DNA of 11,430 nt from Gemmatimonadota bacterium. Lineage in GTDB: Bacteria; Gemmatimonadota; Gemmatimonadetes; Longimicrobiales; Gaopeijiaceae. Positions 3,001 to 6,000 of this stretch are shown here, piece by piece. Numbering within the stretch: position 1 is the stretch's first letter; the number at the start of each line of letters is the position of its first letter. The stretch is taken from assembly GCA_039589315.1 (NCBI GenBank), contig JBDHHQ010000124.1, forward strand, positions 1 through 11,430, written 5' to 3'. The position numbers were made by a program.

Positions 3001-6000
3001 GGAGACGGCACTGTCCCTGAACCCCAACGACCCGGACGCCCTTCACGGGTTCGGGGATTATCTGACCATCACCGGAAGCGCCGACGACGGACTGGTCTAT
3101 GTCAGGAAAGCCACGGACAACGACCCGTTCTCGCCCCTCTGGCGCACCACGGTCGTAGGGCACCTCCACATGATGGGCAGGTTCGAGGAGGCGATCGCTG
3201 AGGCGGACCAGCTCCTGGAGCTTCATCCAGAAGTGCCCATCTGGGGGTGGCGTGGCCATTCCAATTGGCAGCTCGGGCGCCTCGAAGAGGCGATCGCCGA
3301 CTATCGGAGGTTGTTGGCTCGTCGGCCTGAGCAGCTGGAGGTTCTCGAAGAGGGCTACGCGAGCGGGGGGCCGAGAGGGGCGCTCCGTGCCTACACGGAT
3401 GCGACCGCAGAAGCGGCGGAGGGGTCCGGCAGGGGCGCGCTCGGCGTGGCCTACCGGTACGCCCGTCTGGGAGATGCGTCCAAGGCACTGGCATGGATCG
3501 AGCGAGGCTTCGAGCAGCGCACCCCGGATCTGGCTTACCTCGGCGTGAGGCCGGAGTTCGAGTTCCTGCGTTCCGCCCCCGTTTTCCTCCGTCTACTCCA
3601 GCAGTTGGGACTGCCGGCCCCGACCAGCGGCTAGAACGTCACTCCGGCGACCTCTTGGACCCCGTTCGCGCTCAGGGGGCCCGCGCATTCGGCATTCCAG
3701 GGCGTTTGCGCGCTGTTCTGGGCGTCGGCCGTTTGCGCACTTGGCCCGACACGCCGCGGCGCAACGCCGCGTGGGCCTCCCCAACCTGTCCCGGCGCGAA
3801 GCAGCAGTGACCGTCCAGCGCTCCTGTCGCACTGGTTGGGCGGGTGGTGTGTTCGGGCTGGATGAATCGTGCGCGCGGAGCCGCCTTACCGTATCCTGGG
3901 GACTCTGTCTCCCGCTGGGCCGAACCTTCAGTAGCGGCTCCACGGGACTACACTCCTTTCCGCACAGATCGTAGTGGTGGGACGCCCGCGATGCCCAAGA
4001 TCACCTGCCTGCCGGACAACAAGAGCATCGAGATCGGCGACGAGGAGACGATCCTCGACGCGACGCTCCGAGCCAACATCGCCCACGCCCACGCGTGTGG
4101 GGGTCGCGCCAAATGCTCGACGTGCCGTGTGTGGATCCTGGACGGGCTGGAGCATGTGGTCGAGCAGACCGATCAGGAGCTCTCACTCTCGGAGCCGTTG
4201 GGCTTCGGACCCGAAGTGCGACTGGCCTGCCAAGCCAAGGTCGTCGGAGACGTCAAGCTGCGGAGACTCGTTCTCGACGAAACAGATCTCGAAATCACGA
4301 GCCAGCTCGCCAGAAAGAGGCTGGGGTTGGCTGGCGAAAGCAAAAGGGTGTCCGTTCTCTTCTGCGACATCAGAGGCTTCACCCATCTGACCGAAACGTT
4401 GTCGGCGTACGACGTCGTCTTCGTGCTGAGTCGCTATTTTTATCATGTGGGCGAGGCCATCGAGGTCAATGGTGGCTACATCGTCGACTTCTACGGCGAC
4501 GGCGTAATGGCACTGTTCGGCGTAGATGATGACCCCTTGGCCCCACTTCGAAGTGTGAAGGCCGGGCTCGACATCTTGGAAGCCGTGGATCGCTTCCGGC
4601 CGTACATGCAGTCGATGTACGGGCAGGGATTCGAGGTGGGCGTCGGGCTCCATTACGGACCAGCAGTGATCGGTACAGTCGGATCGGCCATGCGAGAGAA
4701 GCTCACAGCCATCGGCGACACGGTGAACATCGCGAACCGGGTGGAGGCGGCGAACAAGGAGTCCGGCACCAGCATGCTCATCTCCGACGACCTCTACGAC
4801 GAGGTCGAGGCTCACGTCGAGGTTGGCGATTTCCTGCGGGTCAGGCTGAGGGGTTCGAGCGAGCGGCGGAGCCTCTACGAGATCTCTGGGCTGACTCCGT
4901 CAGGTGTCGCCCTTACCGCCCCGAGCGGAGCGGAGGACGAGACAAGGGAGCGGTACGCCGGCCGCGACTGGATCCGTGTGCTCCCGGAGGCCGAGCTGCC
5001 CATGGGCCACCGCAAGGTCGTGGAGCTCGATGGCCTGGATCTGCTAATCCTCCACTCCAAGCGGAGAATCCATGCGATCAACAACGCCTGTCCCCACCTG
5101 AAGCTGCCGCTCAGCGACAGCACGGTCACGGACGAGGAGACGATCGTCTGCCGTTGGCACGAGAGTCGTTTCGATTTGAGTTCTGGCGAGATCCTGGAGT
5201 GGTGTCCGGCCCTGGCGGACGATGGCACCCCGAAGGGAATGGAGCATCTAGGAAACGTCAGCAAGAACCGGACACCGATGAGCCCCTTTCCCGTGAGAGC
5301 TCACGATGGGCATATCTGGGTGGCAATCGATTAGCGGGTGCGCTACGCCGGGCCATATCGGTCGGCCGCGGTGACGACTATGTAACCCGGCCTCCCTGAT
5401 CGTCAGGCTCACTGGCCTCCCCCTCCCGGTCACGGCCGAATCCCTCGTCCATGATACGCGCCTGGAGTGCCTGTAGCCTCGCGACATCCCCGGATCCCGC
5501 GCACAGAGTCTCCCGTGCGAGCGTGCCTAGCCTTGCCATTTGTGCGGCGTACTGCCGGCAGCGCCTGCAATAGAGCAGGTGAAGCCGAGTCAGCACGCGC
5601 GTCGGCCACGATGCGCGCTCCAGCTCTTCACTCGAGATCCGAAACGCCACGTCTCGGCACTTCATCAAGCTCATCCCTCCAGGCCTTTCATCTCGAGACA
5701 CCGGCGTAACCACGTCCGCGCCCGGTGGAGCAGCACTCCCAGGTTTGTGCGCGTGACGTCCAGGATCTTACAGATCTCATTCGACTCCAGGCCCTCGACC
5801 TCACGAAGCGTGAATGCCATCCGCTGCTTCGTCGATACCTGATCCAAACAGGATTCGATGCCTTGACGGACCTCGGAGGCGTAGACCGCCGCGTCGGTGG
5901 GCCGCGGCGGTCGGGCCCAGTTGCCGGCGGCGTCAATGATGGCCGGCGGACCAGGACGTACGGGACTTCGCCAGGGAGCACGGGCTGGATACGGCCGAGG

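Follow-up and report, generated by a model that had tools for sequence, protein, structure and literature searches.

A putative redox-switched class IIIb nucleotide cyclase with ferredoxin and Rieske domains in a Gemmatimonadota bacterium

A gene in a Gemmatimonadota bacterium (assembly GCA_039589315.1, contig JBDHHQ010000124.1) encodes a 447-residue protein in which an adrenodoxin-type [2Fe-2S] ferredoxin domain, a class IIIb nucleotide cyclase domain and a Rieske [2Fe-2S] domain follow one another. Judged from sequence comparison, the protein is a member of a widespread, unstudied bacterial family. We propose that it is a redox-switched cyclase with a CyaC-like ferredoxin (Fer2) transducer, for which the Rieske domain provides electron input or output; taken as a whole, we give this explanation about an even chance. 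Coordinates below refer to the window, the whole stretch of 11,430 nucleotides that was analysed. The features of the gene (3991–5334, forward strand) are as follows.

3976–3982, forward strand: GGTGGGA, a candidate Shine–Dalgarno-like element read in the sequence, 9–15 nucleotides 5′ of the ATG
3991–4275, forward strand: adrenodoxin/ISC-type [2Fe-2S] ferredoxin domain (residues 1–95), assigned from Pfam Fer2 and PDB matches
4276–4335, forward strand: linker (residues 96–115), conserved in the alignment, with a putative signalling role
4336–4893, forward strand: class IIIb cyclase homology domain (residues 116–301), assigned from Pfam, PDB alignments and Foldseek
4486–4488, forward strand: codon of Asp166, which occupies the site of the Lys of adenylate cyclases and of the Glu of the guanylate cyclase Cya2
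4894–4965, forward strand: variable linker between cyclase and Rieske domains (residues 302–325), with poorly conserved columns and pLDDT of 62–69
4966–5331, forward strand: Rieske-type ferredoxin domain, MsmC-like (residues 326–447), assigned from Pfam and PDB matches

The open reading frame is a real gene. It runs without interruption for 447 codons plus the stop and encodes Fer2, class IIIb cyclase and Rieske domains in that order, and its start methionine at 3991 is common to all 26 homologues in the multiple alignment (26/26). The survey's finding had reported this frame, the domain order with its Pfam ranges, a set of motifs and a soluble product, all of which held: translation returned the same frame, every Pfam match lay over its curated cut-off, and the motifs were found at residues 36, 80, 124, 168, 367 and 387. 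All eight cluster ligands and both metal-binding Asp residues are present, as it had stated, and Asn246 and Arg250 are present too. The protein is predicted to be soluble, with no membrane span by Kyte–Doolittle analysis (maximum mean 1.1 in a 19-residue window). An NCBIfam search gave no whole-protein model, all 11 matches falling under their cut-offs, and promoter and terminator scans across 3500–6000 were empty on the forward strand near the gene. The AlphaFold2 monomer model has a pTM of 0.52, at which the relative placement of the domains is not fixed.

The flanks of the gene have no counterpart at any Gemmatimonadota locus compared, and at the locus of the nearest relative (L001) the match to this contig is confined to the gene itself. 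The bin has 5% contamination, but the closest relatives of the gene are themselves from Gemmatimonadota, at 78% identity (L001) and 66–69% (Longimicrobiales), which makes mis-binning of the contig unlikely. An IS91 transposase adjoins the gene. We rejected IS91 as a general carrier of the gene, since the adjoining transposase has no counterpart in the 80 loci compared (L001–L080). All-against-all clustering of the open reading frames of these 80 loci and this contig found no conserved neighbours across taxa, with synteny in Mesorhizobium only; no oxygenase or reductase gene was a conserved neighbour, and no conserved neighbouring gene suggested a redox partner. Pfam searches of this contig likewise placed no oxygenase gene near the cyclase gene. 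Elsewhere in the genome, five matches to cNMP-binding domains are potential readers of the signal.

The N-terminal domain had been described as a plant-type ferredoxin, a label that its ligand spacing and nearest relatives contradict. Residues 8–84 match Pfam Fer2 (E 5.5e-10, over the curated cut-off), and the ligands Cys36, Cys42, Cys45 and Cys80, within the motifs CGGRAKCSTC (from residue 36) and RLACQ (around Cys80), are spaced CX5CX2CX34C; plant-type [2Fe-2S] ferredoxins have CX4CX2C. The best solved relatives of residues 1–95 are the E. coli ISC ferredoxin (PDB ID: 1i7h, 3.1e-13), adrenodoxin homologues and putidaredoxin, with plant-type entries (1iue, 1rfk, 3b2g and chloroplast ferredoxin) at 1.5e-4 to 9e-3. 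On these grounds we class the domain as adrenodoxin/ISC-type. It is not an orthologue of ISC Fdx by its profile score, because fdx_isc, the best NCBIfam match of the protein, reaches 49 bits against a cut-off of 132, and so it does not belong to that equivalog. Cys36, Cys45 and Cys80 are present in 77/77 rows of the family alignment and Cys42 in 76/77.

Between the ferredoxin and cyclase domains lies an RRLVLDExD motif, made up of RRLVL (residues 91–95), the last residues of the Fer2 part, and the start of the linker, in which Arg91, Arg92, Leu93, Val94, Leu95 and Asp99 are invariant (27/27 rows). A helix is predicted for residues 97–107, and the monomer model has pLDDT below 50 over residues 94–114. 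The linker together with RRLVL would form the signal path from ferredoxin to cyclase.

The cyclase domain appears complete. The match to Pfam Guanylate_cyc (PF00211; residues 117–258, E 1.3e-19, 71 bits against a cut-off of 21.9) spans model positions 6–143 of 183, which had been counted as a weakness of the finding. Sequence alignments to PDB entries extend over residues 113–301 (best 2.5e-22), and the AlphaFold2 model superposes on Cya2 (PDB ID: 2w01) with a TM-score of 0.89 and an r.m.s.d. of 1.7 Å across 194 columns in Foldseek; both point to a whole domain, with low Pfam coverage rather than truncation. S. platensis CyaC (1wc*) and P. aeruginosa CyaB (3r5g) join Cya2 as the top Foldseek matches. 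The metal-binding residues Asp126 and Asp170 reside in the motifs FCDIRGFT (from residue 124) and YGDG (from residue 168), and these, together with the transition-state residues Asn246 and Arg250, are each retained in 77/77 family rows, with the full Asp/Asp/Asn/Arg set in 130/150 superfamily representatives. Class IIIb cyclases are defined by a second substrate position that holds Thr instead of Asp. Here this residue is Thr239, opposite a Thr in S. platensis CyaC and conserved as Thr in 71/77 rows, and with the nearest folds it assigns the domain to class IIIb at the level of sequence and model. Class III cyclases build their active sites as head-to-tail homodimers, so the protein is probably a soluble homodimer.

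The first substrate position makes the product less safe. The survey's finding had named the protein a cAMP (or cGMP) synthase; an intact class III cyclase domain supports the synthase, but the residue at position 166, four residues ahead of the second metal Asp and not mentioned in that finding, weakens the case for cAMP. This position is Glu in Cya2 (2w01) and Lys in both S. platensis CyaC (1wc1) and the engineered adenylate-cyclase form of Cya2 (6fht). Here it is Asp, neither the Lys of adenylate cyclases nor the Glu of the guanylate cyclase, and to our knowledge it resembles no characterised substrate-specifying pair. Across the family the residue is Lys in 54 rows, Asn in 11, Asp in 6, Arg in 4 and Ser in 2 (n = 77). 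Asp is found only in the Gemmatimonadota clade (6/6 rows), and the remaining eight rows of the 14-row clade around it are alphaproteobacterial and all carry Asn. The product is therefore uncertain, as the adenine-specifying Lys has been replaced in this clade; cAMP is most likely, and the specificity may be relaxed or altered.

A stronger version of this doubt, that the enzymes of the Gemmatimonadota clade are not adenylate cyclases at all and that loss of the Lys has moved them to GTP, to relaxed specificity or to another nucleotide, strikes us as possible though doubtful. Asp166 aligns with the Glu of Cya2 and both residues are acidic, and Asp is fixed beside Asn-bearing neighbours in a family where Lys prevails. 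Set against this, Glu is absent from position 166 in all 150 superfamily representatives, the second position retains the Thr of class IIIb adenylate cyclases, and mycobacterial cyclases with Asn or Gln in place of the Lys are still mostly adenylate cyclases. Whichever nucleotide is used, the change from Lys to Asp is a natural experiment in class III cyclase substrate choice.

The C-terminal domain matches Pfam Rieske (residues 327–408, E 3.4e-15, 56 bits against a cut-off of 20.3) and Rieske_2 (residues 326–445, E 4.4e-11, over the curated cut-off). Its ligands, Cys367, His369, Cys387 and His390 (CXH-X17-CXXH; CPH at 367 and CRWH at 387), are all present in 77/77 family rows. The match to MsmC (PDB ID: 8jng, 1.5e-12) covers residues 321–446 and includes the C-terminal WCP...FPVR extension, and further relatives are dioxygenase Rieske ferredoxins, with 5bok, 2qpz, 3gce and 1fqt among the matching entries. 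High-potential Rieske proteins of the bc1 and b6f complexes carry a disulfide-forming extra Cys next to each ligand box. The boxes here, CPHLKLP and CRWHESR, have no extra Cys; most relatives have CRWHESC (final Cys in 57/77), with the Cys not at the bc1 position. We accordingly place the domain, by its motifs and relatives, among the soluble ferredoxin-type Rieske domains. A complex prediction for the Fer2 and Rieske domains scored 0.05, the mark being 0.32, a result that counts neither way on binding.

Because the cluster ligands and catalytic residues are conserved across the 77 rows, all three domains are under selection for function, and redox control is the natural reading. The activity of the cyclase would be set by the redox state of the bound [2Fe-2S] clusters, with the ferredoxin domain and its linker as the transducer acting on the catalytic domain. 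The Rieske domain would take the place of the haem-b anchor of CyaC as electron input or output: electrons would pass between it and a soluble partner or oxidant, and the cluster of the ferredoxin would thereby be filled or drained. As in CyaC, oxidation would turn the enzyme on; the product would most likely be cAMP.

The gene had been taken for a single gene in a single bin, which no longer holds. Relatives occur at 298 loci in species-representative genomes, mostly of Alphaproteobacteria and including cultured Mesorhizobium and Ensifer, and the same three domains are found in 118 of the best 120 protein clusters. To describe what accompanies the Fer2-cyclase core, we scanned 82 of 150 representatives (50% identity), comprising all with at least 60 residues beyond Fer2-cyclase together with the Rieske forms. 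The additional domains were globin (23), haem peroxidase (16), FNR-like NAD_binding_1 (8), Rieske (7), YceI (3), CDGSH (2, one also with Rieske), and DUF4079, Ferric_reduct and DUF2769 (1 each), with no additional domain in 21 of the 82. Almost all of the named domains hold a redox cofactor or bind a gas or a quinone, which would be expected of interchangeable inputs to a common transducer. Fer2 keeps its place directly N-terminal to the cyclase, whereas both the kind and the position of the accessory domain vary. What is new, on this survey of sequences, is that the Fer2-cyclase core is a chassis for interchangeable Rieske, CDGSH, globin, peroxidase, FNR-like, YceI and haem-b anchor modules. 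We found no description of a Rieske-linked cyclase, or of a soluble Fer2-linked one, in the open-access full-text articles searched.

Split forms, with a separate Rieske open reading frame beside Fer2-cyclase, were absent from 110 loci (L095–L204) searched with our own Rieske profile. Pfam likewise gave none in 30 flanking open reading frames, the first 30 of 51 candidates; these cover L100 and L125–L129 completely and two of five frames at L130, with L131–L133, L135, L136 and 21 frames lying outside.

The same survey bears on how the two clusters are used. They might be independent inputs, each acting directly on the cyclase with no electron transfer between them, which we regard as unlikely. 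One Longimicrobiales relative (L008, G603) has cyclase and Rieske with no Fer2, and Fer2-cyclase with no Rieske is common (59/150 representatives); therefore either domain can accompany the cyclase alone, and the Rieske domain may act on it directly. A fixed Fer2 beside a movable accessory, with globin N-terminal in 8 representatives and C-terminal in 14, is nevertheless better fitted by one transducer with a swappable input.

Equally improbable, in our view, is that the clusters are sacrificial sensors, destroyed or modified by O2, reactive oxygen species, NO or iron limitation so that the apo or damaged form differs in activity. His-ligated iron–sulfur clusters, such as the Rieske cluster and that of the CDGSH domains in sister architectures, are labile and proton-coupled, and the globins and peroxidases found in other sisters react with O2, NO and H2O2. 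However, ferredoxins of the adrenodoxin and Rieske types are as a rule stable carriers of electrons, the FNR-like variants (8/82 scanned) suggest that electrons are loaded reversibly from NAD(P)H, and the response of CyaC to quinone and quinol is reversible according to PMC10463352. That the protein chiefly transfers electrons within a metabolic pathway, with the cyclase inactive or a dimerisation scaffold, is very improbable: both its Fer2 and Rieske domains are of families that serve oxygenase systems as soluble electron shuttles, but its catalytic residues are invariant, largely so even across the superfamily, and it lacks a conserved oxygenase or reductase neighbour.

The redox-switched, CyaC-like model extends to a bolder proposition. 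Fer2-cyclase could be a general modular converter of electrons to cyclic nucleotides, accepting Rieske, CDGSH, globin, peroxidase, flavin-reductase, quinone-binding and haem-b inputs, and the Gemmatimonadota Rieske clade could in addition have switched product by way of Lys to Asn to Asp, to become a redox-gated synthase of cGMP or another cNMP; we think it rather unlikely that both parts hold. Ferredoxin-linked redox control of cAMP synthesis was previously shown for one membrane protein, CyaC, and the same ferredoxin–cyclase module now appears in soluble proteins from hundreds of genomes, alongside varied redox, gas-binding and quinone-binding domains. If the model is true, bacteria would have a plug-and-play device by which the state of an electron carrier or oxidant sets the level of a second messenger. 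Being small and soluble, and with orthologues in cultured Mesorhizobium and Ensifer, the Rieske form would offer an easy entry to biochemistry, structure and engineered redox reporters.

Each part of the protein has known counterparts. E. coli Fdx (1i7h), adrenodoxin and putidaredoxin share the CX5CX2C...C spacing of residues 1–95, but here the ferredoxin is fused to a cyclase. Similarly, MsmC (8jng) and the naphthalene, carbazole and biphenyl dioxygenase ferredoxins (2qpz, 3gce, 1fqt) have the same CXH-X17-CXXH arrangement and are free-standing shuttles encoded with oxygenases, whereas here the Rieske domain is fused to the cyclase. Synechocystis Cya2 (2w01) and S. platensis CyaC (1wc0–1wc6) have the same metal Asp pair and Asn/Arg residues and, unlike this protein, carry no iron–sulfur domains.

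The closest known system is the CyaC of S. meliloti (SMc01818). In PMC10463352, which cites the CyaC study of Wissig et al. 2019, this protein contains two haem B along with a [2Fe-2S] cluster and becomes active once quinones have oxidised it, and Beltz 2016 (PMC4821796) places ferredoxin-associated cyclases with haem-b anchors in class IIIb. As far as the available text of both articles goes, redox sensing is credited to the haems and the [2Fe-2S] cluster figures only in a scheme. Residues 8–314 of our protein align with the Fer2-cyclase part of a 558-residue membrane protein of Ensifer sesbaniae (L092:748–2421; 36% identity, E 7e-53, five gaps), which is matched to CyaC by architecture and may not be the SMc01818 orthologue; the gene downstream (L092:2426–3391) is by translation an apparent multi-span membrane protein, in contrast to the TetR-type cycR found 3′ of S. 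meliloti cyaC. The same residues align with a DUF4079-Fer2-cyclase representative (P0148) at 43% identity (7.2e-70). These alignments identify the Fer2-cyclase module as homologous to that of CyaC-type class IIIb cyclases; since CyaC is reported to be switched on by oxidation, the claim of the survey's finding to a new kind of redox-to-cyclic-nucleotide sensor is to be withdrawn. Both proteins have the ferredoxin domain directly N-terminal to the cyclase. CyaC receives electrons from quinones through a six-helix dihaem-B membrane anchor, whereas our protein begins with the ferredoxin domain, is predicted to be soluble and anchor-free, and has a C-terminal Rieske domain that CyaC lacks. CyaC-type proteins retain the substrate Lys (DKFIGDG in L092) where this protein has Asp166. 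Oxidation-activated cAMP synthesis is documented for CyaC.

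The cyclase gene (3991–5334, +) is an open frame of 447 codons without interruption, and its product lacks a membrane span. Pfam places the following domains on the 447-aa protein, all above the curated cut-offs:

Residues 8–84: Fer2
Residues 117–258: Guanylate_cyc
Residues 327–408: Rieske
Residues 326–445: Rieske_2

The motifs read in the survey's finding were located at the four Fer2 cysteines (residues 36–45 and 80), the metal-binding aspartates D126 (within 124–131) and D170 (within 168–171), and the Rieske motifs CPH (367–369) and CRWH (387–390). Starting instead at a GTG further upstream (3844) would lengthen the protein by 49 residues; the methionine of 3991 is the start in 26 of 26 aligned homologues. 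An initial concern over the short Pfam match to the cyclase proved unfounded, as solved cyclases align by sequence to residues 113–301 and an AlphaFold2 model (mean pLDDT 80, pTM 0.52, lowest confidence in the linker) fits complete catalytic domains, superposing on the guanylate cyclase Cya2 (PDB ID: 2w01) with a TM of 0.89 and an rmsd of 1.7 Å over 194 columns.

The ferredoxin domain, first described as plant-type, is instead closest to the adrenodoxin/ISC type, with a cysteine spacing of CX5CX2CX34C. Its best solved relatives are the E. coli ISC ferredoxin (1i7h, 3.1e-13), adrenodoxin homologues and putidaredoxin, with plant-type ferredoxins about ten orders of magnitude poorer than 1i7h. 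The Rieske domain is nearest to the ferredoxin subunit of methanesulfonate monooxygenase (8jng, 1.5e-12), followed by the Rieske ferredoxins of aromatic dioxygenases.

All 77 aligned rows of the three-domain family, the window protein among them, keep the four Rieske ligands, Fer2 Cys36, Cys45 and Cys80, and the catalytic residues D126, D170, N246 and R250, while Cys42 is kept in 76, with Trp in one (L075). In the segment joining the ferredoxin to the cyclase, R91, R92, L93, V94, L95 and D99 are invariant in 27/27 rows of a smaller alignment. Judged from sequence, position 166 is the exception to canonical cyclase chemistry in the window protein, with Asp where adenylate cyclases carry the adenine-specifying Lys. 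The counterpart is Glu in Cya2 (2w01) and Lys in both the engineered adenylate-cyclase form 6fht and S. platensis CyaC. Across the 77 rows the position is Lys (54), Asn (11), Asp (6), Arg (4) or Ser (2); Asp is confined to six Gemmatimonadota rows, whose nearest alphaproteobacterial relatives have Asn. This Asp166 is the basis for a reading in which the window's Gemmatimonadota clade may make a product other than cAMP. The second substrate position is Thr, the class IIIb state, in 71 of the 77 rows. Glu is absent from the Lys position in all 150 representatives of the wider Fer2-cyclase superfamily, 130 of which possess the complete Asp/Asp/Asn/Arg set. Two further positions also differ: residue 56 (nt 4156–4158), a non-ligand Cys in 75/77 rows, has been replaced by Val here and in a single other row, and position 393, Cys in 57/77, is Arg in the window protein.

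The gene is not confined to a single bin, as had been supposed. Fer2, cyclase and Rieske domains occur together in 118 of the best 120 protein clusters built at 90% identity (433–496 aa, 51–79% identity), while of the remaining two, one is the window's own gene in a shorter call and the other a fragment of 360 aa; the JGI label on the clusters is 'class 3 adenylate cyclase/nitrite reductase/ring-hydroxylating ferredoxin subunit'. Relatives are encoded at 298 loci (one genome per species). In the best 80 of these, Alphaproteobacteria predominate, including cultured Mesorhizobium, Ensifer/Sinorhizobium, Rhizobium setariae, Ruegeria and Stappia, alongside Beta- and Gammaproteobacteria, single bins labelled Methylomirabilota, Acidimicrobiia and Spirochaetales, and seven Gemmatimonadota loci. 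Few Gemmatimonadota carry the three-domain gene: in an evenly drawn set of 400 other genomes, four gave a Fer2-cyclase match of any kind at 1e-40, only one of them with the Rieske part, so the earlier count of none in 40 genomes reflects genuine patchiness.

We built a tree in a quick IQ-TREE run from the 77 family rows and five two-domain outgroups, leaving out L008, L021 and L080 (short or frameshifted frames) and L054 (which runs off its contig). The closest partner of the window protein is a Gemmatimonadetes bin (L001, support 100); four Longimicrobiales rows join the two (support 99), and the resulting six-row clade is nested among alphaproteobacterial rows (supports 85–93, not starred). 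Gene G+C is lower than that of the flanks in 4/5 Gemmatimonadota loci, and no flanks were shared between loci in any comparison made. Together, these observations fit acquisition from Alphaproteobacteria, the inferred donors, followed by later movement.

Several features of the loci bear noting. Downstream of the cyclase gene, at a distance of 560 nt, is an IS91-family transposase (5897–7318, +; Y2_Tnp 1e-28, Zn_Tnp_IS91 2e-11), with no counterpart found near the gene in L001–L080, and GC skew along the window drops steeply to negative values between about 5400 and 8000. Beyond the transposase, a 616-aa ORF with DUF7482 (7479–9329, +; 2.7e-14) adjoins an ORF (9358–10491, +) in which weak outer-membrane beta-barrel-like matches precede a C-terminal plastocyanin/azurin-type copper domain (2.1e-11). 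In other genomes, neither ORF shows a link with the cyclase. One Longimicrobiales chromosome carries two copies of the three-domain gene about 1.8 Mb apart (L003:5993-7349 and L020:5993-7349), 99.85% identical over 1357 nt. Identity is lost about 8 nt or less from the start and stop codons, which makes this a duplication or conversion of gene size with no flanks in common. In a Baikal alphaproteobacterial bin (L021) and a Mesorhizobium loti draft (L080) the gene is split across two reading frames, through either frameshifts or assembly errors.

An exhaustive profile-free search returned 533 clusters (50% identity) at E <= 1e-30. Most of the best 150 align to window protein residues 1–300 only, that is, the Fer2-cyclase part.

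Architectures of the best 150 representatives, sorted by in-house domain profiles
Fer2-cyclase alone: 59
C-terminal extension: 51 (2 N-terminally extended too)
N-terminal extension only: 23
Fer2-cyclase-Rieske: 11 (2 with N-terminal extension)
Fer2 undetected: 6 (3 cyclase-Rieske, fragments included; 3 cyclase alone)

Extra domains by Pfam in 82 of the 150 (all extended and Rieske forms)
Globin: 23 (14 C-terminal, 8 N-terminal, 1 internal)
Haem peroxidase: 16
FNR-like NAD_binding_1: 8
Rieske: 7
YceI: 3
CDGSH: 2 (one also with Rieske)
DUF4079: 1
Ferric_reduct membrane domain: 1
DUF2769: 1
Unnamed or no extra domain: 21

In an alphaproteobacterial sample, 73/301 genomes have a Fer2-cyclase gene; of 30 loci inspected, 22 have a long N-terminal extension, five are Rieske forms, one is two-domain and two have other C-terminal tails. 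A split arrangement, with Fer2-cyclase next to a free-standing Rieske gene, did not turn up among the loci sampled: an in-house Rieske profile picked up no separate Rieske ORF in 110 loci (L095–L204), nor did Pfam in 30 flanking ORFs of two-domain loci. One representative (P0125, 587 aa) has four CDGSH iron-binding repeats before Fer2-cyclase-Rieske, and would be predicted to hold up to six iron-sulfur sites per cyclase subunit. Three others (P0180, P0205 and P0239) end in a YceI-like domain, a family whose members reportedly bind ligands of the polyisoprenoid or quinone kind, and may be a soluble quinone-sensing counterpart of the membrane-bound CyaC of S. meliloti. A Longimicrobiales relative (L008:5989-7086, also G603:C14:285791-286873; 69% identity) starts at window protein residue 88 and is a cyclase-Rieske protein without Fer2; no Fer2 remnant was found in other frames near the L008 gene. 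The existence of this natural form favours a reading in which the two clusters may be independent inputs.

Constant in the superfamily is the ferredoxin directly before the cyclase, joined to it by the conserved segment; variable is a domain carrying or binding a redox-active group. The simplest reading would be a single fixed transducer, made up of the ferredoxin cluster and its linker, served by electron inputs that can be swapped. Past the sequence facts, this mechanism as a whole is one that we infer. In a rival reading, the clusters may act through damage rather than reversible reduction. That the cyclase domain is a mere scaffold is unlikely, because its catalytic residues are invariant. 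The cyclic-nucleotide signal could be readable in this organism, since its genome has five cNMP-binding matches and about seven other cyclase-domain genes. Elsewhere, a 143-aa stand-alone cNMP-binding protein (L125:3562-3990, +) is encoded immediately before a two-domain Fer2-cyclase gene (L125:3965-4909, +), with the reading frames overlapping, and the two may be a cyclase-receptor pair.

Searches of open-access full text turned up no paper describing a cyclase linked to a Rieske domain, or a soluble one linked to a ferredoxin, and there is no curated NCBIfam model covering the protein. Databases already contain and auto-name many family members, and the principle that a class IIIb cyclase can be under redox control by way of a linked ferredoxin has been published; of most interest are the modular build of the superfamily and the drift at the substrate site. 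Forms with an N-terminal extension correspond to the 'ferredoxin-associated class IIIb' cyclases, which are described as having six-helix anchors similar to fumarate reductase cytochrome b (Beltz 2016, PMC4821796). The studied member, S. meliloti CyaC (SMc01818), is described as binding two haem B and a [2Fe-2S] cluster and as activated through oxidation by quinones (PMC10463352). A membrane protein of this type from Ensifer sesbaniae, comparable to CyaC in architecture, aligns to window protein residues 8–314 with 36% identity (E 7e-53). In the window protein, the Rieske domain would take the place of CyaC's haem-b anchor, linking the ferredoxin cluster to a soluble donor, acceptor or oxidant, and by analogy with CyaC the cyclase would be switched on by oxidation.
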